64,000 nucleotides of DNA from Thermoguttaceae bacterium (lineage in GTDB: Bacteria; Planctomycetota; Planctomycetia; Pirellulales; Thermoguttaceae): contig CAXXFH010000006.1 in the NCBI GenBank assembly GCA_963677085.2, positions 43,862 to 107,861 on the forward strand, read 5' to 3'. The notes below the pieces were generated by a model. That model was given only the letters and a program-made list of their open reading frames with translations. It was not told where the DNA came from and ran no database searches. Positions 899-16,738 of the stretch are shown here, one piece after another. How positions within the stretch are numbered: the first letter of the stretch is position 1; the number at the start of each line of letters is the position of its first letter. The translations under genes were made by a program, and so were the position numbers.

Positions 899-2209
899 AT
901 GGACTGGGCGTTACTTTTGTTCTTCCCCCTGGCCGGTCTGGCGATTCTCCAGAGCCTGCTGTTGGTGTTGCAGACCTGGGAACACCGCCGGTATGCGCGG
1001 AGCTGCATGAACCGCAAGCGCCAGGGGTATCCGAAAGGACGGGCCGCCGTCTTCGTGCCCTGCAAGGGACTCGATGTCGACCTGACGGAGAACCTCCGCG
1101 CCTTGATGATCCAAGACTATAACGACTACGAGGTGAACTTCATTGTCGAGCGTTCCGATGATCCGGCCTGCGAAGCCATTCAGCGGGTCATGGCCGACCA
1201 TCCTTTGGTGCCCTCGCGGATGCTAATTGCCGGCCGGGCGATCAATTGTGGGCAAAAGGTCCACAACCTGCGTGTGGCCACGGCCCACCTGGCTTCCGAC
1301 GTGAAGTATCTCGTGTTCGTCGATTCCGACGCCGGGCCCCGTTCTTCCTGGCTGCGAACGCTCGTGCTTCGTCTCTGGGGTCGCAACGGGGGCGCCGTGA
1401 CCGGCTACCGCTGGTTCATCCCTACCCGCCCGACCGTCGCCAACCTGCTGTTGTACAGCTTGAACTCGGTGATCATGTCGTTGTTCGGCCGTCGCAGCCA
1501 CCATCTGGTCTGGGGTGGCTCATGGGGTATCCGCCGCGAGTTGTTCGACCGGCTCAAACTCCGCGATGCCTGGGCAGGTACGCTTAGCGACGATCTGGTG
1601 GCCACGCAGGTGTTGCGCAAGGCCAAGGTAACCGTGGCATTCGAACCCGGCTGCGTTGTGGCCTCGCCGTGCGACTACTCGTTGGGCGACCTGTTCGACT
1701 TCATTCGCCGCCAGTACCTTGTGACACGTTTCTATACGCCGTGGTGGTGGGGATTTGGAATCGCCGTCTTGTCGGCTAGCAATCTCTTGTTTCTGGCCAA
1801 CGTGGGATTGCTCGGTGTCGGGTTGCGTTCCGACGCGGCCTGGTCGTGGGCGTCGTTGGCAATCTGCGTCATGCTCTATGGGCTGATGGCCGCGCGGGGC
1901 ATGTTGCGGCAGTCGCTCGTGAAGACCTACTTTCCAGAACATTACCAATCGCTGCGCGCGGCCCGATGGTTCGACATCGTGGCCAACCCGCTGGGTAGCT
2001 GGACACACTGGCTGGGTGTGGGCGGTTCGCTATTCGGGCAACACATCACGTGGCGATCGATCTGCTATCGCGTTTCTCGCGGTGGACAGGTGCAAATTGT
2101 CCGCCGCGACGAACATTTCGATCCGGAAGCCACCCAGGTGATCGCTGTCGATGAAACCGTCCTCTGCCTGCCGCAATCCAAGGGAGTGTCGCTGAAGAAG
2201 GCCGGATAG
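899..2209 (+). CDS. Membrane glycosyltransferase, GT2/GT21 (ceramide glucosyltransferase / HpnI-like)
   Basis: ORF 881-2209; the first ATG is at 899 (a TTG at 881 is also possible). Evidence is an N-terminal TM segment, a D-x-D-type core (KYLVFVDSDAGP) and QDYNDYEVNFIVERSDD, typical of the glucosylceramide-synthase-like GT fold, plus C-terminal TM helices. Confidence 0.7.
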   Translation: MDWALLLFFPLAGLAILQSLLLVLQTWEHRRYARSCMNRKRQGYPKGRAAVFVPCKGLDVDLTENLRALMIQDYNDYEVNFIVERSDDPACEAIQRVMADHPLVPSRMLIAGRAINCGQKVHNLRVATAHLASDVKYLVFVDSDAGPRSSWLRTLVLRLWGRNGGAVTGYRWFIPTRPTVANLLLYSLNSVIMSLFGRRSHHLVWGGSWGIRRELFDRLKLRDAWAGTLSDDLVATQVLRKAKVTVAFEPGCVVASPCDYSLGDLFDFIRRQYLVTRFYTPWWWGFGIAVLSASNLLFLANVGLLGVGLRSDAAWSWASLAICVMLYGLMAARGMLRQSLVKTYFPEHYQSLRAARWFDIVANPLGSWTHWLGVGGSLFGQHITWRSICYRVSRGGQVQIVRRDEHFDPEATQVIAVDETVLCLPQSKGVSLKKAG

Positions 2210-2418: not shown

Positions 2419-3915
2419 ATGCACGTTGTTCTCTGGGATACGAACCAACTCGATGCTTCCAAAGACTTTGCCGGAGGATTCGGCGTCGGAAAATACCCCG
2501 GCCACGGCGGCGTACGGGGGAAGCTCATTCGCTGGTTCTACACCCGGGATCGACGTCCCGTGGCCCTGCTGTTTGCCCATCTCGCGGCCGCGTTCAACCG
2601 CCTGGGCCATCGGGTGGAGTATGCTGTCGACCGCGTGCCTCGCGAGGCCGACATGGTGATTTTCTCCCCGTCGCTGATCACCCTCGACCTGGAAAAGCGG
2701 CGGATGGCCGAGGTGCTCAAGCGGCTTCCCGGCGTGCGGGTGCTGGTCGTCGGGCTGGTGGCATCCGTCATGCCCGAGGCCTTCGAAGGTCTCGACGTCA
2801 CCGTAGTCAAGGGCGAGGCCGAGCAGCTCTTCTGGCGACTGGACGAGGTGCTGGCACGGCCCGGTACCGCCGTGCAGCTCGGCACGATCGAAGACCTCGA
2901 CCGCCTGCCGCTGCCCGACTGGTCGCCGTTTGCGCCGAAAAATTTCCGTATCGGTTACGATTTCTGGAAGTTTCCCACCGCGTTGATCCAAGCCAGCCGC
3001 GGTTGCACGTTTCACTGCAACTATTGTCCCTACATCGTTCTCGAAAACGCCACGCGGATGCGCAGCCCCGAGGCCGTGGTCGATGAAATCCACCATGGCA
3101 TTCGCCACTGGGGTTTTCGATCGTTCAAGTTCCGCGATCCGCTGTTCGGGCTGAAGCGTCCGTTGGTCTACGAACTGGCCGAACGCATCGGCCGGTTGCC
3201 GCGGAAGATTCAGTTTTCGATCGAAACACGCATTGAACTCGTTCCGCCCGAGATCTTGCGCCTGCTGAAACGCGTCGGGCTGACGAGCATTACCGTGGGT
3301 ATCGAATCGCCCAACGACGAGATGCTCAAGCGCTACCACCGGGCGCCGGTCCACGACGACAAACAACGCGAGTTCGTCGACACGTGCCGCCAATTGGGCA
3401 TTCGTACGGTGGCCGGGTTTCTCATCGGTTTTCCCGAAGACACGGGCCGTTCGATTCGCCGGGTGCTCGATTACGCCAAGCTGGTCAACCCGACGTTTGC
3501 CAACTTCAACGTCGTCACACCTTACCCGGGCACGGCCTTCTACGACGAAGTCCACGACCAGATCGCCGACCACGATTTGAGCCACTACACGGTTTACACG
3601 CCGGTGATGAAGTACGAAAACCTCAGCGGCGAGCAGATGCAAGAGTGGCACGCGAAGTGTTTTCGGCAGTTTTACTTCCGTTTCCCGTATCTGCGCGACA
3701 ATGCCCACCTCCTCTGGCCCGTATTGCGGCGGTTGGGCGTGGGGCGAGGCGGCCGCACCGCGTCGTCGCCGGAAGCCCTCGGCCAGTCGGCCCACGACGG
3801 AGTGCCCAAGCCACTCAGCGGCCAAGAGCTTCTGCGCAAAAAGGGTCTGCGGACCGACGGCCCCCATCTGCAACCCGGTTCCCGCGACCAGGCCGAAAAC
3901 CGCCGGACGGGGTGA
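2419..3915 (+). CDS. B12-binding-domain radical SAM enzyme (class B; HpnJ-like)
   Basis: CxxxCxxC motif (RGCTFHCNYCPY). The N-terminal Rossmann-like B12-binding region is followed by a radical SAM core (SITVGIESPNDEML, GFLIGFPEDT). Confidence 0.85.
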   Translation: MHVVLWDTNQLDASKDFAGGFGVGKYPGHGGVRGKLIRWFYTRDRRPVALLFAHLAAAFNRLGHRVEYAVDRVPREADMVIFSPSLITLDLEKRRMAEVLKRLPGVRVLVVGLVASVMPEAFEGLDVTVVKGEAEQLFWRLDEVLARPGTAVQLGTIEDLDRLPLPDWSPFAPKNFRIGYDFWKFPTALIQASRGCTFHCNYCPYIVLENATRMRSPEAVVDEIHHGIRHWGFRSFKFRDPLFGLKRPLVYELAERIGRLPRKIQFSIETRIELVPPEILRLLKRVGLTSITVGIESPNDEMLKRYHRAPVHDDKQREFVDTCRQLGIRTVAGFLIGFPEDTGRSIRRVLDYAKLVNPTFANFNVVTPYPGTAFYDEVHDQIADHDLSHYTVYTPVMKYENLSGEQMQEWHAKCFRQFYFRFPYLRDNAHLLWPVLRRLGVGRGGRTASSPEALGQSAHDGVPKPLSGQELLRKKGLRTDGPHLQPGSRDQAENRRTG

Positions 3916-4171
3916 GCCTGTCCGACAGCGGCAGACCGCAAAGCGGCCGTTGCCCGTCAAAGCCAACTCAACACGTCGCGCCGTCCGGCATAACCAGCAC
4001 AAGCTGGCCGTACTTCACGCCGAATAGGGTGGTACGCTAAGTGGGGGTTTCACGCCACTGGCCGCGTGTCGCTCCTCTCTTGTTCGGCTGCCATCCTCTC
4101 ACCGGCCTCTCGGTTTTCTCGCCCCTTCGGATCGATCGACAAATAACCTGCCGATTCGCCGGGCCGTGCGT

Positions 4172-4230
4172 CGCGACGGCCCTCGGGTTTTGCCTTGGAA
4201 AACGGTAAGTCGTTTTTCGGGCCGTCCTTA
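4172..4230. repeat. Hairpin repeat family E (copy 2)
   Basis: cgcgacggccctcgggttttgccttggaaaacggtaagtcgtttttcgggccgtcctta matches 731-795. Confidence 0.6.
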
Positions 4231-4412
4231 CCATCCGATGGCCGCTTCGTGTTTGCCTGGCCCCGATTCCTGAACTAGAGTTTCGATGGCAAGTTGCGAA
4301 GTTGTCGTCGGGGCACAGCTCATCAGAGGCTCCCCCCCCCGACCATGGTAGGATCCACGTCGTTTCCCACTGAAAACACACTCCTCGCACAAGCCGTGTT
4401 TCCTCTTCCTCC

Positions 4413-5558
4413 GTGTTGGTCGTTTACGGGATTGCCGTGTCAGCCGATCTGTCAACACAACTTGCTGGTTGGAACGATGTCCGGCACACGCTCGATGAAA
4501 TTCGGGCGTGCCAAGGCGAATACGATTCGTTCTTCTCCGGCGTGTTCGATCACCTGCAATCCCTTTCGGGCGATCTCTCGCAACACAAGTCGCACTGGGT
4601 GGCCCAACGCCATCAGCAGGCGGCCTCGATGGTTGAGCAGTCGCAGTCGGTCGCCCAGCAGAGCGACGATCGCTGGGAACGATTGCTCGAGGAAACCCGA
4701 TCGCAGCACGCCGAGATGTGCGACGCGCAAAAGGTCGTGCGCCAGCAGGTCGAACGTCTAGCCGCCATCGCCGCCGAGTTGGCCGAGGCCCACCGCCAGG
4801 ACGCCGAGCAGGGCAGGTCCGGCCACGACAGTGCCAACCACGACAGCGCCTCGGAGGAATCGTTGCGGCAATTGCTCGACGAGTTTCGCCAGCAGCAACA
4901 ACAATGGCGCAAGTTACACGAGCAGGCCGCCTCGAACACAACCGAGGCTTTCGGCCAGGAGCTGGCGGAAGTTCGCCGTGAACTCGCCGCCGCGCAACAG
5001 GCGCTACTCGAACGTTTCGAACAGCTTCAAGCGGCCCAGGCCAAAACAACCGGCAAACCGGCCGCCGCTTCGGCGATCGACACCGAACTACGCAAACGTC
5101 TCGACGAAATCCATCGCCTGCAACTCGAGTGGTCGCAGTCGGCTCCCGCAGCCGCGGCCGACGACGATCCCCTACGACAGCAACTTCAGGAGATGACCAC
5201 CCAGCAGGCGGCCTTAGATCAAGAACGGGCGTCGCTGGAAATCGAGTTGGAGTCGGTCCGTGGCCGAGCAGCCGAACTGGCCGAGTCGTTGGCCGATGAG
5301 AAACGCCAAACGCGTCGCCACCAAGAAGAATTCGCCGAAGAACTTAAACGCATGCGCGGGCTGTTGGAACTGATGTCGTATCGGATCAGCGAAACCGCGC
5401 CGGCCCCGGCTACACCCGTCCAAGCAACCCCGACCACGGCAGGCGCCGCTGCGGGTACTACGGCCGACAACGGTGCCGATCCAGTACTCGACTCCGTGAT
5501 GGCGCAGTTCGAGATGCTCCAACGCGATCTGGCCCGACGCCGCAATACCAAGGGATGA
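4413..5558 (+). CDS. Hypothetical Gln/Glu/Ala-rich coiled-coil protein
   Basis: Long ORF with heptad-like charged low-complexity sequence (QQLQEMTTQQAALDQERASLEIELESVRGRAAELAESLADEKRQ). The start is uncertain (GTG at 4413; the first in-frame ATG is about 70 codons in). No recognisable catalytic motif. Confidence 0.5.
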   Translation: MLVVYGIAVSADLSTQLAGWNDVRHTLDEIRACQGEYDSFFSGVFDHLQSLSGDLSQHKSHWVAQRHQQAASMVEQSQSVAQQSDDRWERLLEETRSQHAEMCDAQKVVRQQVERLAAIAAELAEAHRQDAEQGRSGHDSANHDSASEESLRQLLDEFRQQQQQWRKLHEQAASNTTEAFGQELAEVRRELAAAQQALLERFEQLQAAQAKTTGKPAAASAIDTELRKRLDEIHRLQLEWSQSAPAAAADDDPLRQQLQEMTTQQAALDQERASLEIELESVRGRAAELAESLADEKRQTRRHQEEFAEELKRMRGLLELMSYRISETAPAPATPVQATPTTAGAAAGTTADNGADPVLDSVMAQFEMLQRDLARRRNTKG

Positions 5559-5771
5559 CCGGAAACACAACGGGAGAATGCTATAAACAATAGGGTAGCC
5601 GTTCATGGCCGTTGTTTTTTTCGACAACTATTGGGGCCTGCATTGCTTGCGGAACGAGGGCGACCAACGGGAGCCCGGTTCGCGGGGACAAAACGCAACG
5701 AAATGTTCCACAATTAACCTCGGAATCAATAATAGCATAGCGCACCTTCAATTCACACATCGGAGAAGACC

Positions 5772-7139
5772 ATGGGCTCACGTTGCCGCATCGTGGTCCT
5801 GAGTACGATTCTGTTATTCAGCCTGATTAATCTCGGTATTGGCTGCTGGTACGTTCAACCGATTTTGGCGGCGTCCGGGGCAATGGGATGTTGCTACCTG
5901 GCCTTGCGCGTGGCGCGGCTCAGACGCACTTCGTTGGGCATCAACCAATCCCAAACGTCGGACGATTCGGCGACTTCGTCCCCGACGGTGGTTCGACCTG
6001 CCCAGCGCGAACCGGTCGATCCCAACGATACCGAGGCGTTGGTCAATCAGTTGCTCGAGCAGGGCCGCTACGCGCTGCTGCTGCGTCCACAAATCGCCAA
6101 CACGCTGGACGATGTTCGTTTCGGCCGGGTGCTGGACGCCCTGCAAGACGGTGCCGCCCTGGTGCCGGAGGGCGAAGTCGTGTTGGGCGGCGTCGACGCC
6201 GCATTGGACGACGGCCACCTCACACCCGACGAGATAATCGCTACCCAGGGACGCGTGGTGAAAGTCCGAGGGCTTTTTCTCGACCGCTACCCGGTGACGA
6301 ACGTCCAGTATTACGAATTCGTGGCCGCCGGAGGTTACCAGCAGATGTCGCTTTGGGACAAGGGGATTTGGCCGGCAGTTCTCGACATGGTCGACAGCAC
6401 CGGCGTACCAGGTCCGAAGTACTGGCAATATGGCTGCTTTGCCCCCGGCCGGGAGCAACACCCCGTGGTAGGAGTGAGTTGGTACGAGGCCTGTGCCTAC
6501 GCCCGATGGGTCGGCAAGCGGCTGCCCACCGACGCGGAATGGGTAAAAGCCGGCAGTTGGCCGGTCACCCTTTCCGAAACCAACCGGTCGCAACGGCGCT
6601 ATCCGTGGGGCGACACCATGGATCGTCGCAAAGCCAACCTCTGGGGCTCGGGCACCGATGATACCGTGCCGGTGCAGGAATATGCCGACGGCGGCAGTGT
6701 GGGTGGTGTTTCCCAACTAATCGGAAACGTCTGGGAATGGACCTCGAACAACTTCTCGCCCGTCGACCCGTATGGCAACCATTATCAAGTCGGTAATCCG
6801 ATGAAAAGTATCCGCGGAGGGGCCTTCGACACCTATTTCGATAACCAAGCCACCTGCCAATTTCAAAGTGGAGAAAACCCGTTGAGTCGCCGTCACAATA
6901 TTGGCTTCCGTTGCGCGGTGGGTGTGTGCGACTTGCTGTTGGCGCAAAGTGGACGGCCGGCAGACGTGTCGGCAAACGTTGACACTCCGCCCGACGCCAG
7001 CGTTCCCTCCGACTCGAAGGCCCCCTCGGACACGGCCGAGGTGCAAGCCGACGTGGCAATCGCGCCGGCCGACACCACGGCAGCCGACATCACGGCGGCC
7101 GATGCCCAGGTTTCCAAGTCTGAAGAGGTGCCCGCATGA
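5772..7139 (+). CDS. Membrane-anchored FGE-sulfatase (SUMF1/EgtB/PvdO-type) domain protein with low-complexity C-terminal tail
   Basis: GGAGAAG RBS lies 4 nt upstream of the ATG. There are two N-terminal hydrophobic helices. FGE-domain hallmarks are LDRYPVTNVQYYEFV, HPVVGVSWYEACAYARWVGKRLPTDAEW, YPWGD, GNVWEWT, RGGAF and NIGFRC. Confidence 0.85.
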   Translation: MGSRCRIVVLSTILLFSLINLGIGCWYVQPILAASGAMGCCYLALRVARLRRTSLGINQSQTSDDSATSSPTVVRPAQREPVDPNDTEALVNQLLEQGRYALLLRPQIANTLDDVRFGRVLDALQDGAALVPEGEVVLGGVDAALDDGHLTPDEIIATQGRVVKVRGLFLDRYPVTNVQYYEFVAAGGYQQMSLWDKGIWPAVLDMVDSTGVPGPKYWQYGCFAPGREQHPVVGVSWYEACAYARWVGKRLPTDAEWVKAGSWPVTLSETNRSQRRYPWGDTMDRRKANLWGSGTDDTVPVQEYADGGSVGGVSQLIGNVWEWTSNNFSPVDPYGNHYQVGNPMKSIRGGAFDTYFDNQATCQFQSGENPLSRRHNIGFRCAVGVCDLLLAQSGRPADVSANVDTPPDASVPSDSKAPSDTAEVQADVAIAPADTTAADITAADAQVSKSEEVPA

Positions 7140-8095
7140 CAAAAAGCATGATTCAACCGCTGGAGTCGTGTCGGCTGATCCAATATGCGGTGCCGGTACC
7201 GTGTCACATTTGCGGGACCGACAACACGCTGGATTCCGAGTTTTGCAACCACTGTTTTGCGCCCATGGCGCTGGCCCATCAATCGTGCGGTCGAAAGACG
7301 CAACCCCAGATGTTGGCCGCGTTGGGAGCCAGCGGCGCGGGGAAAACGGTTTACTTGGGCATGCTGATCGACATGCTTTCGCGGCAGCCCGAACGTATGC
7401 AACTGCTCGCCCGGGGAGCGTTTTCCATCACCCTGCAACAGACCACGCTGGCGGCCTTGTCGCGCTGCGAATTTCCGCAGAAGACCCCCAACGAACCCGA
7501 CCGTTGGAATTGGGTACACTGCCAGATTCGCCGTCGCCAGCAACGTCAACCGTTGGAATTGATTATGCCCGACATGGCCGGCGAGGCCCTGTTGGAAGAG
7601 GTCGACCATCCGCACACGTTCCGTGTCGTGCGATCGTTTCTGCAAAAGTGTACCGGCGCGCTGGTGCTGATCGATACCATGCGGTTGGAGGAATCCTCGC
7701 AGGATCAGGACTATTTCACTCTGAAACTGTTGACCTACCTGAACGAACTGGACAACGACGACTCGGACGACACCCGCTGGCAGAAGTCGCTTTCCTGGAA
7801 GAACCGGCCGGTGGCGTTGGTCTTCAGCAAGGCCGACCACTCCGATCTTTGTTCGGACGATCCGGAGGGCTACGCCAAAACTCAAGCCCCGGCGTTGTGG
7901 CAGTTTTGCCAGGAACGGTTCCACCGCCATCGCTTCTTTGCCGCCAGTGTAGCCGGGACGTGCGTTTACCGCGAGTCGTTGACCGAAGGGCGCATGCAGG
8001 TGCCGCTGCGGATCGAGCCGCAAGGTGTCGTGGAGCCCTTCCAGTGGTTGCTCGAGGAACTCGACTCCCTTGCGGGAAAACGGCCGAAGCGTTGA
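7136..8095 (+). CDS. Zinc-ribbon + P-loop small GTPase-like protein
   Basis: The ATG overlaps the upstream stop (ATGA at 7136-7139). N-terminal CxxC...CxxC (CHICGTDNTLDSEFCNHC). Walker A GASGAGKT (nt 7325-7348), DxxG (MPDMAGE) and an NKxD-like motif (FSKAD). Confidence 0.8.
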   Translation: MTKSMIQPLESCRLIQYAVPVPCHICGTDNTLDSEFCNHCFAPMALAHQSCGRKTQPQMLAALGASGAGKTVYLGMLIDMLSRQPERMQLLARGAFSITLQQTTLAALSRCEFPQKTPNEPDRWNWVHCQIRRRQQRQPLELIMPDMAGEALLEEVDHPHTFRVVRSFLQKCTGALVLIDTMRLEESSQDQDYFTLKLLTYLNELDNDDSDDTRWQKSLSWKNRPVALVFSKADHSDLCSDDPEGYAKTQAPALWQFCQERFHRHRFFAASVAGTCVYRESLTEGRMQVPLRIEPQGVVEPFQWLLEELDSLAGKRPKR

Positions 8096-8237
8096 ATTTG
8101 CGTGACACGTCAGCTATTGACGGCTGCCTAGCCAATGAGCGGAAGGCGACCAGCGGGAGCTTGGATTTCCGGGCTATCGGTTTCCAGAAATGATCATTCC
8201 CAATGCGGACATCAATAAATGAAGAACGTGTGTAATG

Positions 8238-8447
8238 ACTCAAACTGAAAACAGAAGGAAGCCGCAGATGAACACAGATACACGCAGATGACGAAAACGA
8301 CTTGGAAACGTGGATTGTCTGGTCGATCACGCCGTGAAGGCGATGCTTTCCAAAAGCCGCTCCACGCCAGATAGTCCGTGCGATGCTATCTGCGTTCATT
8401 TGCGTCCATCTGCGGCTCCAATGTTGGAATCATTTTCAGTTTGAGTA
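8238..8447. repeat. Long imperfect hairpin repeat (family G; GCCGCAGATGAAC..CAGAT arms)
   Basis: Left arm actcaaactgaaaac...gccgcagatgaacacagatacacgcagatg (8238-8291) is complementary to right arm ctatctgcgttcatttgcgtccatctgcggc...ttttcagtttgagt (8387-8447). Confidence 0.6.
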
Positions 8448-8600
8448 ATAAGGGAAGAGGGAAAAGAAGCTGCCACACGTGTTTTTCCCTCTTTCTCTTT
8501 CCCATTTTTCCTTCTTACACCAAGGAGTGGGGAAACGTTTGAATTGACGACTTCCTGCTCCAGATGGCTGAATAGTTGCGAATTGCGGAAAAACCGGAAA
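8445..8600 (+). repeat. Dispersed repeat family F (copy A)
   Basis: gtaataagggaagagggaaaagaagc...ttttccctctttctctttccc...ttccttcttacaccaag...cagatggctgaatagttgcg is co-linear with 25011-25160. A sub-module also occurs at 42064-42155. Confidence 0.6.
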
Positions 8601-8843
8601 AACCGGCCCTGTCGCGCTTGCGTTTCGCCGCAAGGTGGGTCGGGAAAATTCCCTCGCATGGGGTTCGAAAATGCTAGAGTTGGGGAACATCCCACCCGTT
8701 TTCCCGCCATGTTTGCCTGAACTGTCCGCCGCGTTTGCCAAGCAACCTCCGGCATTCGCGATACTCCCCTAGCCATCGTCGGTTCCCTCGTCCAGGCGTG
8801 GGAACGCATTGCCCCTGCCGATAGAACACGAACCAGTCGACGC

Positions 8844-10355
8844 ATGTCACACATCGAACAAGCAGTATTCACCTCGGCGGAAACGGATCGTTCCTTAGGT
8901 TACCAAGTGGTAGGTCGGAGTCCCGGACTCCGCGAGGAAGACGCCCAGGCGTTGGCCATTTGGGGGCCTTCACACGACTCGCTGCTCGATTTGAGCCCCG
9001 AAGCGGAGAGCTACAACTTCCATCCACTGCCCAGCGGCGCGTTTTGTGTGTCGCGCACGACACCGGCCGGCTGGGAGTATAGCGGTCGCGGTGGTCATCG
9101 AGTTTACACTCAATGCCTGATCGTGCAGCCGGAACTCTTGGCCCGCTTCGCCAACAATCCGTTTGCCTTGCTTCGTGCCGCGCTGGCATCCGGGATGTTG
9201 GAGGTTCACGAACACGTACCGAGCCGTCTCGATCCACTGCAATTAAGCGGTCGCGCCTCACCGGTCGACCAATCGCTACTGGCCCGACTGGCCGCCAATC
9301 CAGGAAGCCAACGGATGGCCAATCTGGTGCAGGCCGCTTTGGACCTCATGCAAACCGACGCGGGCACCGCTCGATTGGCCGTAGCCGGTTCTCCTTCGGC
9401 CGCCCAACTGCTGGCCGGCCTGTTCAACTGCCTGCCGGTGGAAAGCCGCACGGCGTTTTCGTTTTGCACGGGCTTGAAGTATTCGTCGCGACGGCCGTTT
9501 CGGATTCAGGCCCTCTCCGACGATCCGGCCGAACGCCGCTGGGTGGCACATCAGCCGAACGTTACCGTGGTGGAATTGTACCACGATTCGCCCACCGAGC
9601 CGTTGCCCTGGGAAGGTTGGGCGCAACTGATCAATCGGGTGTTGGCCTCCGGACGAACCACGTTTCTGGCGACTCAACTCTCGAAGCGTCGTTTCGATCT
9701 CACGCCCGACGACTTGGCGGCCCTGGGTCTGCAATTGCTCGAGGATTTCGAGGCCTCGGCATTGCGTCACGACCATGGCGATTCAGACCTGACAGAGACG
9801 ACCTCCGACGAGGTGACTTCGGCCGAAAGCGATCTGGATCGGCCGTTTGTCGACCCGGTCGACATGCTCGCGGACCCCACCGACCTCAACACCCAGCCGA
9901 AAACGCTGGATACGACCGACGATACGGCGCGGCCGGGCGGGGCCTCACCCGACTATCAACAGGCCCATGCGGCGCATCAGCAGTTCGCGAAAAGCACCTC
10001 TTCGGCCATCCCATCGTCGGGCACCGGATCGTCGGCTAAAGCTCCATCGCGCGTGGTTGCCCCGTCGAAAAATTTAGGGACCGCCTCGCCGCAAGTGTTG
10101 GAAAAACTGGAGTTGCTCGACGACCTGGTCTACGAGGCGCTTAGCGGCCAAACCACGGCCTTGAATCGGCTTGAAGTGCTTTGGCCCGAGATTCGCAGCA
10201 AATTGGACGACGAGTTGCTTGCCGAGTCGCGCGAACAGTATTTGCAATACGCGTTGTCGATCTGGGAAAACTGCGTCAACGACTCAGGCGTTCGCGCCCC
10301 AGCGCGTGCCGTGCAAGCCCTCGACGTACTGTGCGTGCTGTTCGACGAAGTATAG
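8844..10355 (+). CDS. Hypothetical 503-aa protein; N-terminus resembles GTPase-associated protein 1 (GAP1-N-type) domains
   Basis: Long ORF with good coding appearance. N-terminus is MSHIEQAVFTSAETDRSLGYQVVGRSPGL. The middle is acidic and Ser/Thr-rich low complexity, and the C-terminal module is helical. The family assignment is from memory of the M..Q..YTS....G[FY]Q..A.SPG pattern and was not searched. Confidence 0.6.
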   Translation: MSHIEQAVFTSAETDRSLGYQVVGRSPGLREEDAQALAIWGPSHDSLLDLSPEAESYNFHPLPSGAFCVSRTTPAGWEYSGRGGHRVYTQCLIVQPELLARFANNPFALLRAALASGMLEVHEHVPSRLDPLQLSGRASPVDQSLLARLAANPGSQRMANLVQAALDLMQTDAGTARLAVAGSPSAAQLLAGLFNCLPVESRTAFSFCTGLKYSSRRPFRIQALSDDPAERRWVAHQPNVTVVELYHDSPTEPLPWEGWAQLINRVLASGRTTFLATQLSKRRFDLTPDDLAALGLQLLEDFEASALRHDHGDSDLTETTSDEVTSAESDLDRPFVDPVDMLADPTDLNTQPKTLDTTDDTARPGGASPDYQQAHAAHQQFAKSTSSAIPSSGTGSSAKAPSRVVAPSKNLGTASPQVLEKLELLDDLVYEALSGQTTALNRLEVLWPEIRSKLDDELLAESREQYLQYALSIWENCVNDSGVRAPARAVQALDVLCVLFDEV

Positions 10356-10379
10356 CCACGCTTCTGTTGTAGGCCATTT

Positions 10380-10538
10380 CACTGTGTAGGCTATGCTTCA
10401 GCATAGCGCGGCTCACGCCGCAACCAATTGGTGCTACCGCACCCACTTCCACTCGGTCCCAAGCTCCAGCTTGGGACCGCACATCCGCGAAGCATTGCTA
10501 GGGCTGTCGCGCTATGCTGAAGCATAGCCTACACAGTG
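10380..10538. mobile_element. MITE-like element with 31-bp perfect terminal inverted repeats
   Basis: cactgtgtaggctatgcttcagcatagcgcg (10380-10410) is the exact reverse complement of cgcgctatgctgaagcatagcctacacagtg (10508-10538). The 97-bp interior carries a family-C half site and a GGTCCCAAGCTCCAGCTTGGGACC hairpin. Confidence 0.6.
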
Positions 10539-10748
10539 GTGCTGGCAATGCACTCACGTCTCTCGCCCCTCGTCTCAACCTCGCCCCTCGTCTCAACCTC
10601 GCCCGCCAAATCTAACGCCTTTCTTGCAGATCGCTAACCCGGCGTTCATGGCCTTTGGCGATAATTCAGTTAGAGGACTTCGGGAAGACACTCGCTTTGG
10701 TGAAACCTTCTCCCGAAGCAGTCGACCACTCCGAGGACGATTCCCTTG

Positions 10749-13247
10749 ATGTACACGACCCAGAAGACGTCGAAGGCCGATCTTCACGTCCACAGCAAAC
10801 ACTCCGACCGGCCGAGCGAGTGGTTTCTTCGCCGCATCGGATCGCCCGAGTGTTTCGTCGAGCCGCTGGAAATCTACCATCGCGCACGACAGCGGAGGAT
10901 GGACTTCGTGACCATCTCCGATCACAACTGCATCCGCGGGGCGTTGGAAATCGCCCATCTGCCGGGCACATTCATCTCGAACGAGGTGACCACCTACTTC
11001 CCCGAGGACGGCTGCAAGCTCCACGTGCTGGTCAGCGGAATCACGGAAACCGAGTTCCGCGACATCCAGGAAAATCGCTCCAACGTTTACGACTTGCAGA
11101 AGTATCTTGTCGAGCAAGACATCATCCACAGCGTGGCCCATCCGCTGTTTCGCATCAACAGCCGGCTGACGATCGACCACGTGGAAAAGCTGCTCGTGCT
11201 GTTCAAGCGGTTCGAGGCGATCAACGGCACCCGCGACGTCCGAGCGGCCGAACTGGTCGACGCCATCTTCGGCCACCTCACGCCCGAGATGATTGAAGCG
11301 ATGGCCAATCGCCACGGTCTCGCACCGGTCGGTCCTGAACCTTGGGTAAAACACTTCACCGGCGGCAGCGACGACCACAGCGGAGCCTACACGGCCGCCG
11401 CCCATACGATGACGCCGCCGTGCGACGACGTCGACGAGTTCCTCGGTCATCTGCGCCGCGGCGAGCACGGGCCGGCCGGCACCTCGGGTGGCAGCGTGAT
11501 GATGGGACACTGCCTGTACCACATTGCTTACAGCTACTACAAAGACCGTTTCGTCCGCGGCACCGGCGACGGCAAACCCACCATCATCGGCGAGCTGTTC
11601 AAAAAACTGCTTCAACAGGCCGAGCAACAACGTCCGCCGGCCAGTCTGGGCCAACGGTTAAAGGACGCCGCGGTGAGTTTCGTTTGGGCGCGTCAGAAGA
11701 ATCGTCTCAGCGAAGTTGATCGGGAGTTGGTCGACGAGTTTTCCCAACTATTCAACGTCGAAGAACAGCGCGACGTGGCCTCGCCGCCGATGGACGACCG
11801 GCGCACGTTCTACACGGCTTGCCGCATCAGCCACGTATTGGGTTACAGCTTCCTGCGTCGGTTCGAGAAGTACGCCCGCCAGGGCCGGCTGATGGAAAGT
11901 TTGCAGACGGTGGCCTCCTTGGGGCCGGTCGCTCTGAGCATGGCTCCGTACTTGGCTGCGTTCTCCACCCAACACAAGGATGAGCCGTTTCTCCAGGCCG
12001 TGGCAGAACACTTTCCCACGGCGCACCACCTACGGCAAAAGAGCGATCGCAAGGCCTGGGTGACCGACACGTTTGCCGACGTCAACGGCGTGACGCGAAC
12101 CATTCACTCGTTGGCAGCCATGGCCAAGAAGACGGGCCGGAAGATGACCGTGGTAACCTGTCTCGACGAACTGCCGACCACGAAGCTCGACGTCAAGAAT
12201 TTCCGCCCGGTGGGTACCTTCCAGTTGCCGGAATACGAGTCGCTGCGGTTGGCCTTTCCCCCGTTTCTTGAGGTGATCGAGTATCTCGAACGGCAACGGT
12301 TCAGCGAGGTGATCATTTCCACACCCGGCCCTATGGGACTAACGGCCCTGGCCGCGGCACGCCTTTTGGGTTTGCGCACCACGGGCATCTACCACACCGA
12401 CTTCCCGCAGTTCGTCCGCTATCTGACGGGCGACGACGACATGGAGGAACTTACCTGGAAGTACATGCTGTGGTTCTACGAGCAAACCGACCGCATCCTG
12501 GCCCCCAGCGAGTATTATCGCAAGACGCTCGCTTACCGTGGCTTCGATCCCACCAAGCTGCAACTGATGGTTCGCGGCGTGGATACCGCGTGGTTCACGC
12601 TGGAGAAACGCGACCCGGCATTCTACCGTCGCTGGGGTCTCGACGATCGGCTGACATTCGTCTACGCGGGCCGTATCTCCTGCGAAAAGAACCTCCACCT
12701 GCTGGTCGACGCGTTCCGCTCGCTGATCGAACGCGACGTGACAGCCCAGTTGGCAATTGTGGGCGACGGCCCTTATGTGGAAGAACTTCAGAAGCAGTCT
12801 CAAGGGTTACCCGTCTTTTTCACGGGCTTTCTCGACGGCGAAGATCTGGCCACTGCCTATGCCAGCGCCGATGTGATGGTGTTTCCCTCGACCACCGACA
12901 CGTTTGGCAACGCCGTGCTCGAAGCCCAAGCGAGCGGACTGCCCGCGATCGTCGCCGACCGGGGCGGTCCTCCCGACATCGTCGGCCCACACGAATCGGG
13001 CCTGATCGTGAATCTCAACGAACCGAACGCGCTGGCCGATGCCATGCAACAGTTGGCATGCGACGAAACCATGCGGAACGAAATGGGACGGCGCGCGTTG
13101 CGCAACGCGGCCGAACGTCGTTGGGAAGTGGTGCTCGAAGAATTCTGGAACGGCGCGGAGAACGATCCCGCCACATCCGAACGGCTCGTCTATCGTCAGC
13201 CGAACGAGCACGTCACGGCGGGCCTGGTTTCTCTCGATACCGCCTAG
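10749..13247 (+). CDS. PHP-domain phosphoesterase fused to GT4 (group 1) glycosyltransferase
   Basis: N-terminus ADLHVHSKHSDRPSEW ... TISDHN ... HPLF is the PHP metal-binding pattern. C-terminus VYAGRISCEKNLHLL ... VFPSTTDTFGNAVLEAQASGLPAIVADRGGPPDIV is the GT4 E-x7-E region. Confidence 0.85.
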   Translation: MYTTQKTSKADLHVHSKHSDRPSEWFLRRIGSPECFVEPLEIYHRARQRRMDFVTISDHNCIRGALEIAHLPGTFISNEVTTYFPEDGCKLHVLVSGITETEFRDIQENRSNVYDLQKYLVEQDIIHSVAHPLFRINSRLTIDHVEKLLVLFKRFEAINGTRDVRAAELVDAIFGHLTPEMIEAMANRHGLAPVGPEPWVKHFTGGSDDHSGAYTAAAHTMTPPCDDVDEFLGHLRRGEHGPAGTSGGSVMMGHCLYHIAYSYYKDRFVRGTGDGKPTIIGELFKKLLQQAEQQRPPASLGQRLKDAAVSFVWARQKNRLSEVDRELVDEFSQLFNVEEQRDVASPPMDDRRTFYTACRISHVLGYSFLRRFEKYARQGRLMESLQTVASLGPVALSMAPYLAAFSTQHKDEPFLQAVAEHFPTAHHLRQKSDRKAWVTDTFADVNGVTRTIHSLAAMAKKTGRKMTVVTCLDELPTTKLDVKNFRPVGTFQLPEYESLRLAFPPFLEVIEYLERQRFSEVIISTPGPMGLTALAAARLLGLRTTGIYHTDFPQFVRYLTGDDDMEELTWKYMLWFYEQTDRILAPSEYYRKTLAYRGFDPTKLQLMVRGVDTAWFTLEKRDPAFYRRWGLDDRLTFVYAGRISCEKNLHLLVDAFRSLIERDVTAQLAIVGDGPYVEELQKQSQGLPVFFTGFLDGEDLATAYASADVMVFPSTTDTFGNAVLEAQASGLPAIVADRGGPPDIVGPHESGLIVNLNEPNALADAMQQLACDETMRNEMGRRALRNAAERRWEVVLEEFWNGAENDPATSERLVYRQPNEHVTAGLVSLDTA

Positions 13248-13311: not shown

Positions 13312-13719
13312 TTACGGCACGATCTTGAAAACTTGATCGCCCGCTGACACTGGTTCGATCGTTTTGATTCCCACCACTTGCCCCACGGTAGCTTCGTCGA
13401 CCGGTTGGGCGTCGATTTGCATCGATTCGACCGCCTGAGTCAGGTCGACCGAGGTGCCGCAAATACGAATCGTGTCGGTGGCGCGCAAGGTGCCATCGGC
13501 AATTTCAACGGCCGCGATTTCGATACGTGGGAAGTAGTGTGTTACCCTGCCAAGGCGTACTTCAGCCATTGGTCCGTCCTGCCCCGAAAAACACGGACCG
13601 GTCAACATGTGCCCACGGCGTAGGTCTACCCAACTGCCGCAGTCGCACAGGACCCGGTGTCCAAACTGAAAGAGCGTTACATCGAAACCCATCCCGCAAC
13701 GCGGGCAGGTGATCGCCAT
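13312..13719 (-). CDS. Hypothetical zinc-ribbon protein with C-terminal small beta-barrel-like region
   Basis: N-terminal CPRCG...CDCG zinc ribbon. It follows lutC co-directionally. Function unknown. Confidence 0.55.
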   Translation of the reverse strand: MAITCPRCGMGFDVTLFQFGHRVLCDCGSWVDLRRGHMLTGPCFSGQDGPMAEVRLGRVTHYFPRIEIAAVEIADGTLRATDTIRICGTSVDLTQAVESMQIDAQPVDEATVGQVVGIKTIEPVSAGDQVFKIVP

Positions 13720-13950: not shown

Positions 13951-14601
13951 TCAGTCGACCAGTAAGACGATCAACCGCTTGGGACCGTGAACGCCGAGGA
14001 TCAAGATCTTCTCGATGTCGGCCGTACGACTTGGGCCGGTAATGATCACCGTTTCGCCACGCTGTTGGGCGTCGGCCGCCTGTTTGGCAATCGTTTCCCA
14101 TGCAGCCGGCAGATGTTCGGCCAGGGTTTCGGCCTGGGCCAAAACCACCGAGACCGGCGGCAGATAGCACAACAAGCGTTCTTCGGCCGTGTTGCACGAG
14201 ACGACACAACTGCCCGTATCGGCGAGAAGTTGATCGGCGGAAACCAGGCCGGCGGAAAGCTCGGCCATTGCCTTGGGGTCCCACCCGTCGTGTGCCCAAA
14301 CCACCTGATCCTCGGCCAACCCGGCCACCGCCGTACGGCAAACCGCATTGTCGACCGCACCCAGGCAGCTCCACTCAGACTGCCGAAACAATTCGGCCAG
14401 CCGGTCGGGCACTTCTTCCATCGAGCCGCATCGAACGACCTCGCCCGTAACGGCCGCAAGCTCGGCCAAAAAGCGTTCGACCATCGCTTCCCGCGACGGA
14501 TTGGTCCGCGGCCACACCTCGGGCACGGGCGGCCGTTTCACTTCCGGAGCGTGAGAAACCTCGCTACGAATCCGCGCCAATATTGCTTCGCGACTGTTCA
14601 T
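13951..14601 (-). CDS. lutC: Lactate utilisation protein C (LUD domain)
   Basis: LUD-domain-like sequence (MNSREAILARIRSE..., ...ITGPSRTADIEKILILGVHGPKRL) downstream of lutA and lutB. Confidence 0.8.
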   Translation of the reverse strand: MNSREAILARIRSEVSHAPEVKRPPVPEVWPRTNPSREAMVERFLAELAAVTGEVVRCGSMEEVPDRLAELFRQSEWSCLGAVDNAVCRTAVAGLAEDQVVWAHDGWDPKAMAELSAGLVSADQLLADTGSCVVSCNTAEERLLCYLPPVSVVLAQAETLAEHLPAAWETIAKQAADAQQRGETVIITGPSRTADIEKILILGVHGPKRLIVLLVD

Positions 14602-14655
14602 GATGCGCTTTCTTTTACACCGAATTCAGCCTTTGTCGCTCAACCACTACGGTTC

Positions 14656-14685
14656 TTTTGACAGGATAACAGGATTGACGGGATG
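14656..14685. repeat. Repeat family I arm (TTTTGACAGGATAACAGGATTGACGGGATG)
   Basis: Same arm sequence as at 15161-15180 and 59387-59408. The complementary arm is at 15238-15268. Confidence 0.65.
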
Positions 14686-14710
14686 AAAGAAGAATGGAAT
14701 CCCGCGAATT

Positions 14711-15097
14711 CTACTCCCGCAGCGGTGGATCGAGTATGCGTACCTTGCGTTTCACTTCCACTTTTTCCGGCCCAAAGTTTAGCAGCAGCCCAATATCCAA
14801 ATGAGTCGCAACGAGATAATTGACCAATTGAATCTCGTGGGCGATGGCAAGCTTACGAACGGATTTGAGTTCAACGATGATTCGTTGGTCGACAACAATG
14901 TCTGCTACGAACTCTCCGACCAATTCGTTGTGGTAATATACCTGGATTGGTTTCTGTTCTTCCATCTGCAGCCCGGCGTCGGCCAATTCGATCATCAAGC
15001 ATTTTTCGTACACTGACTCCAGAAACCCAAAACCCATCGTGTTATACACTCGATAAGCACATCCAATAATCTTCTGGGTTGTCTGCTCATGCAACAT
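14711..15097 (-). CDS. GxxExxY protein (PD-(D/E)XK nuclease-fold family)
   Basis: Diagnostic GFGFLESVYEKCL (G-x-x-E-x-x-Y) motif and ...DIVVDQRIIVELKSV... (D...E-x-K) core. Lower GC than its neighbours. Confidence 0.85.
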   Translation of the reverse strand: MLHEQTTQKIIGCAYRVYNTMGFGFLESVYEKCLMIELADAGLQMEEQKPIQVYYHNELVGEFVADIVVDQRIIVELKSVRKLAIAHEIQLVNYLVATHLDIGLLLNFGPEKVEVKRKVRILDPPLRE

Positions 15098-15160
15098 TTC
15101 TTCAACCGTCGCAGCCAGCTTCCGTCAACATTCCAACATGAACCATGCCTACGACATGTT

Positions 15161-15268
15161 TTTTGACAGGACAACAGGATTTCAAGGGTAAACACACCAC
15201 ACATCTCCCGCCAACAAACGTGTGGATCTTACAACACTATCCTGTCCATCTTGTTATCCTGTCAAAAG
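15161..15268. repeat. Repeat family I, complete inverted-repeat unit
   Basis: ttttgacaggacaacaggat ... atcctgtccatcttgttatcctgtcaaaag with an inner ccacac/gtgtgg hairpin. Confidence 0.65.
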
Positions 15269-15279
15269 AAAAACGCGCT

Positions 15280-16707: not shown

Positions 16708-16738
16708 AATCGAACCGATGTCGTTTTGGTTACGTTTT

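Follow-up and report, generated by a model that had tools for sequence, protein, structure and literature searches.

DO-GTPase/GAP1 systems were defined, on the basis of computational prediction, by Kaur, Burroughs, Iyer, and Aravind (2020; eLife 9:e52696, PMC7159879), and our literature search turned up no biochemical or genetic work on any of them. In that study the hallmark of the DO-GTPase family is the acidic residue that follows the Walker B glycine, and FGE-sulfatase-like (FGS) domains occur in some planctomycete GAP1-N2 systems, where they are interpreted as effectors, as they also are in MoxR-vWA ternary systems. The locus analyzed here lies in a Thermoguttaceae DNA stretch of 64,000 nucleotides (the window), and an earlier note had considered it undescribed. 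It is not: because Pfam matches exceed the gathering scores and the published description fits, FGS in planctomycetes included, the locus belongs to the already predicted DO-GTPase/GAP1-N2 type. The domain assignments made in that note held up in profile searches, with scores of 143.9 for FGE-sulfatase (aa 130-382), 59.4 bits for DO-GTPase1 (E=4e-16), and 43.1 bits for DO-GTPase2 (cutoff 27 for both), and 53.4 bits for GAP1-N2 in the last gene (aa 4-123, E=4e-14, cutoff 24), where GAP1-M was found too. As in the described systems, a TRAFAC DO-GTPase with an N-terminal zinc ribbon and the hallmark acidic residue is followed directly by a GAP1 protein with N2 and M domains and accompanied by a TM-containing partner, here an FGS-domain protein as in the planctomycete variant. 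The locus differs in having one GTPase gene rather than two, one zinc ribbon rather than the "usual two," no counterpart of the typical FNIII-repeat protein, and a GAP1 C-terminal domain outside every Pfam model; the FGS "effector" is constant across this clade, not variable, and an extra coiled-coil protein is present that the main text of that paper does not mention.

The three ORFs first proposed were confirmed in position, length, and strand by the ORF list (Table 1), and a neighborhood survey bore out their linkage as a unit, although the module has four components rather than three, the additional gene lying outside the span first considered. The gene order coiled-coil, FGS, GTPase, GAP1 is kept at essentially each of the 80 Pirellulales/Thermoguttaceae loci in which it would fit; these represent ~80 species-level genomes (82 locus records in the tblastn tally) and were retrieved with strict search patterns that returned close relatives only. 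Unbiased ORF clustering recovered these four genes as the only co-conserved families, with the GAP1 gene in 81 loci, the FGS gene in 78 (median identity 50%), and the coiled-coil gene in 66. The last of these was placed directly upstream of the FGS gene by tblastn in 67 of 82 locus records (65 of 80 scan loci), and most loci without it were cut by contig ends. The genes flanking the cassette vary, and the cassette is mostly single-copy, with two copies in one MAG (L064 and L078). Pairwise identities of the components correlate across loci (rho 0.56-0.79), conservation of the GTPase equals that of an adjacent radical-SAM enzyme (0.67 versus 0.67), and its distances track those of this neighbor (rho 0.59, only 6 loci); no component is hypervariable. 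The genes for the coiled-coil protein, the TM-anchored FGS protein, the zinc-ribbon GTPase, and the GAP1-N2 protein are co-inherited in fixed order across the Pirellulales and Thermoguttaceae. The ATGA overlap, also noticed earlier, follows from the ORF coordinates and is retained in ~51 of 78 loci, which implies that the FGS protein and GTPase would be translationally coupled, usually so across the loci. As a general observation, conserved, vertically inherited immune modules exist, and conservation alone is compatible with a conflict role.

Table 1. Features of the four-gene cassette, in window positions.
Feature	Positions	Strand	Basis
Coiled-coil protein, 381 aa, fourth co-conserved component	4413..5558	+	tblastn, ORF clustering
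Membrane-anchored FGS protein, 455 aa	5772..7139	+	Pfam PF03781, E=9e-42; 78 loci
Uncharged hydrophobic stretch, 39 residues (aa 7-45), predicted helical hairpin with both ends cytoplasmic	5790..5906	+	Mean Kyte-Doolittle 1.75
FGS (C-type-lectin-like) domain without both FGE catalytic cysteines	6159..6917	+	Alignment to S. coelicolor FGE 2q17
FGS low-complexity P/D/A/T tail (aa 386-455)	6927..7136	+	Mean column conservation 0.14
ATGA stop/start overlap, FGS protein/GTPase	7136..7139	+	ORF coordinates; -4 gap in ~51/78 loci
Zinc-ribbon DO-GTPase, 319 aa, predicted switch	7136..8095	+	Pfam DO-GTPase1/DO-GTPase2
Single four-cysteine zinc ribbon (C23, C26, C37, C40)	7202..7255	+	All four invariant in 26 sequences; weak DZR matches
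G1/P-loop GASGAGKT	7325..7348	+	G64, G69, K70, T71 invariant
Walker B/G3 DMAGE	7571..7585	+	D146, M147, A148, G149 invariant; position 150 E or D
G4 SKAD, variant of guanine-specificity motif NKxD	7826..7837	+	K232, D234 invariant
Lineage-specific expanded spacer, 748 bp	8096..8843		Exceeds all 70 other spacers
Nested inverted repeat, ~215-nt hairpin	8235..8449		Arms 8235-8251/8433-8449, 8260-8289/8388-8417
GAP1-N2-type GTPase-associated protein, 503 aa	8844..10355	+	Pfam GAP1-N2; 81 loci
GAP1-N2 domain, predicted longin-like beta-beta-alpha-beta-beta-beta-alpha-alpha topology	8853..9212	+	Pfam, AF2 secondary structure
GAP1-M plus extension, alpha/beta second lobe	9279..9791	+	GAP1-M 25.9 bits vs cutoff 24; AF2 pLDDT mostly >85
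Disordered linker, length-variable (aa 317-410)	9792..10073	+	pLDDT <50
Conserved C-terminal four-helix domain at GAP1-C position	10074..10352	+	pLDDT 82-95

The hydrophobic stretch of the FGS protein has a Gln-Pro break midway, consistent with the two TM helices reported earlier and with their arrangement as a hairpin; its second segment is weak and Gly/Ala-rich, and a few orthologues lack the TM segment altogether. The hairpin is preceded by two K/R residues and followed by four more in the next 15 aa, acidic residues being absent. On the basis of these charges and the positive-inside rule, the FGS domain is probably cytoplasmic and tethered by a membrane hairpin, not the extracytoplasmic sensor that had been suggested. 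The sensor assignment itself also fared poorly, as the literature names FGS an effector and the domain in this clade is neither variable nor catalytically FGE-like. It shares the FGE-sulfatase fold with FGE, EgtB, and the FGS targets of diversity-generating (DGR) systems, and its best sequence matches are EgtB, OvsA, and FGE (among PDB entries, the FGE-like domains of EgtB and OvsA). In the S. coelicolor FGE alignment, however, the first catalytic cysteine falls in a deletion and the second lies opposite a Phe. NCBIfam scores were far under the cutoffs (112.6 versus 360 for EgtB) and covered the C-terminal FGE-like half only; unlike EgtB, the protein showed no DinB/iron-binding domain in NCBIfam and PDB sequence comparisons. 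The domain has a mean column conservation of 0.71, and its C-terminal segment KSIRGGAFDTYFDNQATCQFQSGE is nearly invariant, in contrast to the hypervariable C-terminal region of DGR targets; ORF clustering revealed no co-conserved reverse transcriptase at the cassette loci. The low-complexity tail, correctly recognized before, is variable or absent in orthologues, whose median length is 414 aa. The coiled-coil protein combines a conserved N-terminal motif (conservation profile) with an Ala/Pro/Thr-rich linker and a near-invariant C-terminal helix, DPVLDSVMAQFEMLQRDLARRR. Pfam and NCBIfam returned no family for it, only coiled-coil noise, and all 110 of its homologues come from planctomycete metagenomes.

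The GTPase has more than 1440 homologues, and the 119 best-scoring ones listed after the window's own sequence share 62-72% identity; no relatives were found in the PDB by sequence. The previously proposed zinc ribbon and G motifs were upheld by an alignment of 26 sequences, with the correction that the four cysteines form a single ribbon, and the motifs GxxxxGKT (G64-T71), DxxG (D146-G149), and [ST]KxD (K232, D234) are invariant in 26/26. With G1, G3, and G4 intact, the enzyme is predicted to be active. For the GAP1 protein, at least 799 homologues were found, and its start, MSHIEQAVFTSA, is common to orthologues. The N2 domain holds an invariant loop, YSGRGGHRVYT (R82, R86); the second lobe contains invariant R202, R216, and R217, and its GAP1-M match exceeded the gathering score when the region was scanned alone. 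A conserved AHAAHxxF motif lies in the linker, which is the sole difference in homologues of 617-666 aa, these having no extra domains. The C-terminal helices (416-433, 437-453, 456-476, and 486-499 in the AF2 model) matched no Pfam model at E<=10.

The AF2 model of GAP1 residues 1-316 (pLDDT 88, pTM 0.88) was compared with ~350,000 PDB chains using Foldseek, and the top six matches were to FNIP2, FLCN, TagF, and DENND10 (E 7.5e-5 to 7e-3, probability up to 0.98). The full-length model gave the same theme, adding Lst4 longin, C9ORF72-SMCR8, a Lokiarchaeal longin, and GATOR1. In these models GAP1 appears to be folded like eukaryotic GTPase regulators, with a longin-like N-domain and an alpha/beta domain, although TM-scores to longin/DENN structures were modest (0.17-0.39) with high rmsd and no sequence-level signal. 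The predicted two-lobed architecture is that of FLCN-FNIP, DENND proteins, C9ORF72-SMCR8, and Lst4/Lst7, and like them GAP1 is genetically paired with a cognate GTPase, but it has no clear d-DENN lobe, its partner GTPase falls outside the Rab, Arf, and Rag types, and its activity is a prediction. Zhang et al. (2012; PMC3521125) described small-GTPase GAPs and GEFs as "mostly unique to eukaryotes," with DENN and d-DENN found only inside the DENN module and only the longin domain traced to prokaryotic MglB. MglA/MglB likewise pairs a small GTPase with a regulator of PAS-like, Roadblock/longin-related fold, and its housekeeping polarity role shows that a bacterial GTPase switch can serve outside immunity; MglA, however, belongs to another GTPase family, GAP1 is much larger with longin rather than Roadblock strand order, and MglB was not among the top Foldseek matches. 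The best single-chain match spanning both lobes was TagF, a T6SS accessory protein (PDB 9t0n, 2qnu, 6iz8; probability 0.98, TM 0.38-0.39, 358 aligned columns). TagF is also a bacterial cytoplasmic regulator working at a membrane machine, but its targets are Fha, Hcp, and spike loading, regulation of a GTPase by TagF is not known, and it has no sequence similarity to GAP1; ORF clustering found no T6SS genes at the cassette loci.

We think it probable, with some reserve, that the locus encodes a membrane-associated GTPase switch of four genes, the planctomycete FGS-linked form of the DO-GTPase/GAP1-N2 type. That the genes are merely adjacent, with no functional link, could be suggested by the long spacer before GAP1, which might mean separate transcription. 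This spacer is, as noted before, filled with repeats, comprising a dispersed 16-nt motif and the nested inverted repeat, which looks like an insertion (hairpin free energy -85.9 kcal/mol, z=-4.97); it had no Rfam matches and contained no ORF with conserved relatives. It is, however, an expansion specific to this lineage: none of the other 70 spacers exceeds 453 bp, and roughly half are <110 bp; the 4-nt overlap is conserved, the gene order persists despite differing flanks, and the synteny survey therefore effectively refutes mere adjacency. A metabolic or maturation operon, in which the FGS protein would be an enzyme (an FGE or an EgtB/OvoA-like sulfoxide synthase) served by the GTPase as metallochaperone or maturation factor, would agree with the best FGS sequence matches and with the near-invariant segment at the FGE active-site position, but we judge it highly improbable: both catalytic cysteines and the DinB/iron-binding domain are missing, the EgtB score is far too low, the GTPase is a DO-GTPase rather than a G3E metallochaperone, and neither sulfatase nor thiol-histidine pathway genes are co-conserved (ORF clustering).

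More serious, yet still rather unlikely in our estimation, is an anti-invader system with GAP1 or FGS as sensor of an invader component, the GTPase as the step that sets a threshold, and FGS as membrane-proximal effector. Immunity is the published interpretation of all DO-GTPase/GAP1 systems (Kaur et al. 2020, PMC7159879), FGS domains bind ligands in diversity-generating systems, the genomic context of the cassette varies, and one MAG carries two copies. Against it, the cassette itself does not vary, the FGS C-terminal region is near-invariant where DGR targets diversify, alternative effectors are neither fused nor adjacent (ORF clustering, long GAP1 variants), and no recognizable toxin is present; with no variable component, an arms-race effector model fits poorly. 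Component distances follow those of the neighboring housekeeping-type gene, PADLOC gave no matches, and single-component searches found no relatives among plasmids (GAP1 protein query) or among phages and viral contigs (GTPase queries).

For the membrane-tethered switch, the FGS protein would sit in the cytoplasmic membrane via its N-terminal hairpin with the lectin-like domain toward the cytoplasm and, synthesized in step with the GTPase, would recruit this partner to the membrane, where the coiled-coil protein might act as a scaffold. GAP1 most likely regulates the GTPase: its longin-like N-domain and alpha/beta lobe would bind the GTPase in FLCN/FNIP and DENN style and set its nucleotide state as GAP or GEF, with the invariant R82/R86 or R216/R217 as candidate arginine fingers. 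The flexible linker and C-terminal helical bundle may couple the GTPase state to another partner, and the output, rather than a toxin, would be a membrane complex that is put together or taken apart. The weakest step is the choice of biological role: joint inheritance of the cassette, its mostly single copy number, its invariant composition, and the lack of matches in the mobile elements searched lead us to favor slightly a conserved cell-envelope or cell-biological function over a diversifying immune one. Among the new findings is that the unit comprises four genes, the upstream coiled-coil partner included.

The three open reading frames reported in the earlier note, encoding a membrane-anchored FGE-sulfatase-like (FGS) protein, a zinc-ribbon GTPase, and a GTPase-associated protein (GAP1), were recovered on the forward strand at the positions proposed for them, and the ATGA overlap between the first two follows from their coordinates. 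Profile searches supported all of the domains that had been proposed (FGE-sulfatase, GTPase with a zinc ribbon, and GAP1-N), including GAP1-type similarity in the 503-aa protein, and the cassette is almost certainly a member of the DO-GTPase/GAP1-N2 family. The suggestion that the system looked undescribed had to be abandoned: its type was predicted and named by Kaur et al. 2020 and is also represented in Pfam, by models that stem from that study (eLife; PMC7159879). Kaur, Burroughs, Iyer, and Aravind defined GTPase-centric systems built on DO-GTPases, so named for their frequent paralogous pairs; ∼60% of these enzymes carry one or two N-terminal zinc ribbons, usually two in the N2 type, and their Walker B motif has a conserved Glu (PMC7159879). 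The downstream partner, GTPase-associated protein 1, was described with N, M, and C domains and with subtypes N1 and N2, a nearby FNIII-repeat protein was typical of GAP1-N2 systems, FGS-linked planctomycete variants were also noted, and the defining signature was a "constant core plus highly variable effector" (PMC7159879). A full-text literature search by family names retrieved only Kaur et al. 2020 and no experimental study of DO-GTPase/GAP1 systems, so the system type is known, but only as a prediction. PADLOC-DB v2 contains no model of this system type; when it was searched, the FGS protein, GTPase, and GAP1 had no significant match and a coiled-coil protein encoded upstream gave coiled-coil noise only.

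A species-level scan (one genome per species) yielded 217 confirmed relatives, and the best 80 of these 217 loci were examined. With the window's proteins as tblastn queries, the order coiled-coil, FGS, GTPase, GAP1 was found in all loci whose flanks were long enough; FGS was present in 77 of the 80 loci and GAP1 in 79, the exceptions lying at the end of a contig or close to it. When all ORFs of 100 aa or more were clustered without bias, exactly four co-conserved real families emerged, the GTPase (82 loci), GAP1 (81), FGS (78), and coiled-coil (66) proteins, with the next real family reaching no more than 15 loci and the flanking genes varying among loci. A "fifth gene" at 19 loci was rejected as an alternate-frame shadow ORF within the FGS gene. 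The three-gene module of the earlier note is thus correct in that the three genes are inherited together, in the same order across the surveyed Pirellulales/Thermoguttaceae loci, but the fixed four-family order indicates a functional unit of four genes that starts at 4413, outside the span first reported. The 4-nt FGS/GTPase overlap was retained in ∼51 of 78 loci. As in other DO-GTPase/GAP1-N2 systems, the GTPase matches the DO-GTPase family and has an acidic Walker B residue and an N-terminal zinc ribbon, and the GAP1 gene lies directly 3′ of it, both in the window and in 79 of the 80 surveyed loci. An FNIII-repeat protein was found neither among co-conserved ORFs within ±10 kb nor in Pfam scans of the window neighbors.

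Features of the four-gene cassette and its surroundings (window coordinates)
Feature	Position	Strand	Details
GT2 glycosyltransferase, HpnI-like	881-2209	+	92 bits, cutoff 310
B12-binding radical SAM protein, HpnJ-like	2419-3915	+	135 bits, cutoff 577
Coiled-coil protein	4413-5558	+	
C-terminal helix DPVLDSVMAQFEMLQRDLARRR	5478-5543		coiled-coil protein aa 356-377; near-invariant; behind flexible Ala/Pro/Thr-rich linker
16-nt motif GGCGACCA[AG]CGGGAGC	5659-5674, 8145-8160, 32972-32987 (-), 49078-49093, 60997-61012		
FGS protein	5772-7139	+	455 aa
FGE-sulfatase domain	FGS aa 130-382	+	Pfam PF03781, E=9e-42
ATGA overlap	7136-7139	+	FGS stop/GTPase start
GTPase	7136-8095	+	319 aa
Double zinc ribbon	GTPase aa 16-57	+	weak profile matches
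DO-GTPase1	GTPase	+	PF19975, 59.4 bits, cutoff 27
DO-GTPase2	GTPase	+	PF19993, 43.1 bits, cutoff 27
Spacer, GTPase to GAP1	8096-8843		748 bp
Nested inverted repeat	8235-8449		arms 8235-8251/8433-8449 and 8260-8289/8388-8417
GAP1	8844-10355	+	503 aa
GAP1-N2	GAP1 aa 4-123	+	PF20013, 53.4 bits, cutoff 24
GAP1-M	GAP1	+	marginal: 23.5 bits full protein (cutoff 24), 25.9 bits with aa 120-320 scanned alone
AHAAHxxF	9966-9989		GAP1 aa 375-382
833-aa protein	10746-13247	+	GT4 glycosyltransferase C-terminal half; weakly GlcNAc-phosphatidylglycerol synthase-like, 136 bits, cutoff 480
135-aa ORF	13312-13719	-	N-terminal CxxC...CxC zinc-ribbon-like motif; no NCBIfam match
216-aa ORF	13951-14601	-	downstream of LutB-like gene, another ORF between; no NCBIfam match
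LutB-like iron-sulfur protein	15280-16815	-	422 bits, just short of cutoff 444.8

The product of the fourth gene, the coiled-coil protein, has ∼110 homologues, exclusively from planctomycete metagenomes, and belongs to no family in Pfam or NCBIfam. Its near-invariant C-terminal helix is moderately amphipathic with a basic end and might serve in membrane targeting or as a docking peptide, the hydrophobic moment of 0.41 being suggestive rather than decisive.

For the GTPase, an alignment of 26 orthologues showed that the four zinc-ribbon cysteines and the GxxxxGKT, DxxG, and [ST]KxD motifs are all invariant, and on the basis of these residues the enzyme looks catalytically competent and guanine-specific. 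Within the Walker B sequence DMAGE, the residues D146 to G149 do not vary, and position 150 is occupied by Glu in most orthologues and by Asp in a few. The protein has a single CxxC...CxxC ribbon, made up of the four invariant cysteines, which lies inside the published range of one or two. More than 1440 GTPase homologues and at least 799 GAP1-like homologues were found; the best-scoring matches listed for the two proteins were 50 to 72% identical, and their named sources were all Pirellulales or Thermoguttaceae MAGs. Comparison of the GTPase-family profile to the PDB gave no sequence relative even at E ≤ 1.

Among PDB sequences, the FGS domain came closest to the FGE-like domains of EgtB and OvsA, and true FGEs ranked next. 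When the domain was aligned to Streptomyces coelicolor FGE (2q17) and to 6muj, the first catalytic cysteine fell in a deletion and the second was opposite Phe, and no conserved cysteine occurred among the orthologues at the FGE catalytic columns (the CxxxxC pair of the C-terminal segment). The NCBIfam scores, which cover only the FGE-like half, were 112.6 against a cutoff of 360 for EgtB and 90.7 against 420 for SenA, and the same search detected no DinB-like iron-binding domain. With the catalytic pair missing, assignment as an FGE was rejected, as was assignment as an EgtB/OvoA/SenA sulfoxide or selenoxide synthase given the missing DinB domain and the low family scores; we conclude that the FGS protein is neither. 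Mean column conservation of the domain was 0.71, including the C-terminal stretch KSIRGGAFDTYFDNQATCQFQSGE, and the RGGAFDTYFDNQATCQFQSGE surface is invariant. FGS proteins diversified by DGRs differ in having a hypervariable C-terminal region, whereas the same region is nearly invariant here, and DGR systems include a reverse transcriptase and a template repeat, whereas this cassette has no further co-conserved gene.

The location of the FGS domain also departs from the earlier proposal of an extracytoplasmic sensor. The N terminus contains an uncharged hydrophobic stretch of 39 residues, interrupted in the middle by Gln-Pro; it is preceded by two Lys/Arg residues and followed by four in the next 15 residues, with no acidic residues, and orthologues with a stretch of hairpin length have the same charge pattern. 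Basic residues on both sides would place both ends in the cytoplasm according to the positive-inside rule, and the FGS domain is most likely a cytoplasmic, membrane-tethered module. The second hydrophobic half of the stretch is rich in Gly and Ala, and a few orthologues are missing a TM segment. The MAG DASXPQ01 (Pirellulales SMAG_U5412) contains two copies of the cassette on separate contigs (scan loci L064 and L078). In neither copy does the FGS protein have the N-terminal hydrophobic anchor, and membrane tethering is therefore not universal.

The structure of GAP1 was modeled with AlphaFold2 using 39 sequences, and the resulting models were confident. The full-length model had a pLDDT of 78.7 with residues 317-410 disordered, and the model of residues 1-316 had a pLDDT of 88 and a pTM of 0.88. 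The GAP1-N2 elements (E4-10, E22-25, H31-40, E56-61, E67-77, E85-94, H96-101, and H106-115) have the predicted topology beta-beta-alpha-beta-beta-beta-alpha-alpha, which is the order of elements in longin domains; the N2 domain of the model thus matches the longin part of a longin-DENN module. An alpha/beta lobe that includes GAP1-M comes next, and beyond the linker is a conserved four-helix C-terminal domain with no Pfam match at E ≤ 10, GAP1-C included. The six best Foldseek matches of the two-lobe model among ∼350,000 PDB chains were FNIP2/FLCN chains (6ulg_N, 7.5e-5; 6nzd_H, 1.4e-4; 6ulg_L, 2.2e-3; 8dhb_J, 6.4e-3), TagF (6.2e-4, probability 0.98, TM 0.38-0.39), and DENND10, and they span both lobes. 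Across the matches the TM-scores were low (0.17 to 0.39), presumably in part because the lobes differ in angle, the rmsd values were above 10 Å, and no d-DENN lobe was identified. The full-length model also matched the Lst4 longin domain, C9ORF72-SMCR8, a Lokiarchaeal Roadblock-Longin protein, and GATOR1. No sequence homology of GAP1 to longin, DENN, FLCN, or FNIP was found, Pfam returning only GAP1-N2 and GAP1-M. The matches of the two models agree in theme, and we regard these models as moderate evidence for a longin-DENN-like fold.

Kaur et al. 2020 never named longin, DENN, or Roadblock (PMC7159879), and the TagF literature searched, including the structure paper, contained no DENN or GTPase link for that protein. 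According to Zhang et al. 2012, DENN and d-DENN occur only within the DENN module, and the GAPs and GEFs of small GTPases are "mostly unique to eukaryotes," with only the longin domain traced to prokaryotic MglB (PMC3521125). Five invariant arginines of GAP1, R82 and R86 in the loop YSGRGGHRVYT of the longin-like domain and R202, R216, and R217 in the second lobe, are candidate catalytic or contact residues. Midway along the disordered, length-variable linker is the sequence AHAAHxxF, in which H375 is nearly invariant and H378 invariant; this could represent a short linear motif for docking or metal binding.

The spacer between the GTPase and GAP1 genes proved to be filled with repeats, as had been claimed, containing the nested inverted repeat and a copy of the 16-nt motif. 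The inverted repeat, a single copy in the window, would form a ∼215-nt hairpin of −85.9 kcal/mol (z = −4.97 versus shuffled controls) and looks like a small MITE-like insertion that expanded the spacer. Of the 71 spacers compared, this one is the longest; none of the other 70 exceeds 453 bp, so the expansion is lineage-specific. Rfam searches of 4000-11000 at E ≤ 1 gave no match, the hairpin included, scans for promoters and terminators did not exceed chance, and no ORF inside the spacer had conserved relatives. On the 3′ side of the hairpin we noted by eye an apparent purine/pyrimidine-tract hairpin (∼8452-8515) and a tandem GGAAAAACCGG repeat (∼8586-8607). The 16-nt motif occurs five times with up to two mismatches, compared to 0.36 expected, and three copies lie in a ∼70-nt dispersed repeat; of the two exact-core copies, one precedes the FGS gene and the other closely follows the GTPase stop codon. 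The motif is a possible REP-like or regulatory element.

The HpnI/HpnJ-like pair is reminiscent of genes that modify hopanoids or lipid head groups, at scores far under the equivalog thresholds. With those scores, and with the pair upstream in only 12 to 15 of the 80 loci, it was rejected as part of the cassette. Likewise, the 833-aa protein downstream was not co-conserved with the cassette in the surveyed loci; its N-terminal ∼440 residues have no Pfam call, and an HVHSxxSD-type start is suggestive of a PHP-like domain. The reverse-strand genes at 13951-16815 may serve lactate utilization and are unrelated to the cassette.

The evolutionary behavior of the components bears on what the cassette does. 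Median pairwise identities were 0.63, 0.50, and 0.46 for the GTPase, FGS, and GAP1 proteins (41 loci with complete genes) and 0.31 for the coiled-coil protein (23 loci), and the values for the different components correlate with one another (Spearman 0.56-0.79). The upstream radical-SAM gene is shared by six loci; in this small sample, the GTPase was as conserved as that enzyme (0.67 versus 0.67) and its distances followed those of the gene (0.59). A tblastn search of 72,556 plasmid records with GAP1 gave no match, nor did one of 50,697 phage records with the GTPase, and a viral contig collection searched with the GTPase alignment gave no confirmed relative. The surveyed loci contained no alternative effector, fused or adjacent, and FGS was constant (78 loci, median 50% identity). 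Effector domains in the longer GAP1 homologues were rejected, since the only difference in the 617-666-aa forms is a disordered linker of greater length, with no extra domains.

The family is labeled a "diversifying conflict system." The effector of DO-GTPase/GAP1-N2 systems is highly variable between related organisms, whereas every component is constant here; this fixed composition, the component distances that follow one another and a neighboring gene, and the lack of matches in the mobile-element searches do not fit the label. Because nothing varies and these mobile-element searches were without match, we lean toward a conserved role at the membrane or envelope, a tentative assignment that is slightly favored over a conflict function, which we consider somewhat less likely. 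It is possible that part of the DO-GTPase/GAP1 family does cell biology. A bolder proposal is that GAP1 represents a genuine counterpart, in bacteria, of eukaryotic longin-DENN regulators (GAP or GEF) and that the cassette is a vertically inherited, non-immune housekeeping switch of the Pirellulales at the cytoplasmic membrane; we think this improbable as matters stand. Planctomycetes are a phylum known for complex endomembranes, and envelope or lipid remodeling, polarity, and budding are examples of the process that such a switch might organize.

The cassette is a co-inherited unit of four genes, with a membrane-anchored FGS protein that is not an FGE, a competent-looking GTPase, and translational coupling of these two. 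As a mechanism, we propose that the FGS protein would tether the complex at the inner face of the cytoplasmic membrane and supply a conserved binding surface, that the GTPase would be the switch, and that the longin-like and alpha/beta lobes of GAP1 would bind the GTPase and control hydrolysis or exchange. The AHAAHxxF-containing linker and C-terminal bundle of GAP1, together with the coiled-coil protein, might then connect the switch to further partners or a higher-order assembly. Taken as a whole, this picture is on balance probable.

The locus itself is not new, since its system type has been published and has models in Pfam. Relative to the literature consulted, four points are added: a fourth gene, a composition that is fixed across the clade, an FGS domain that is likely cytoplasmic and non-catalytic, and the prediction of a longin-DENN-like fold for GAP1. 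They make the system a good target for experiments but not a categorically new one. Of the forms encountered in this analysis, that of the Pirellulales is the simplest and best conserved; it comprises four genes with a single GTPase and no interchangeable effectors and so offers biochemistry a clean starting point. [quoted passage not shown] 2012). If the housekeeping-switch proposal were true, the cassette would provide a prokaryotic precedent for longin-DENN-type GTPase control.
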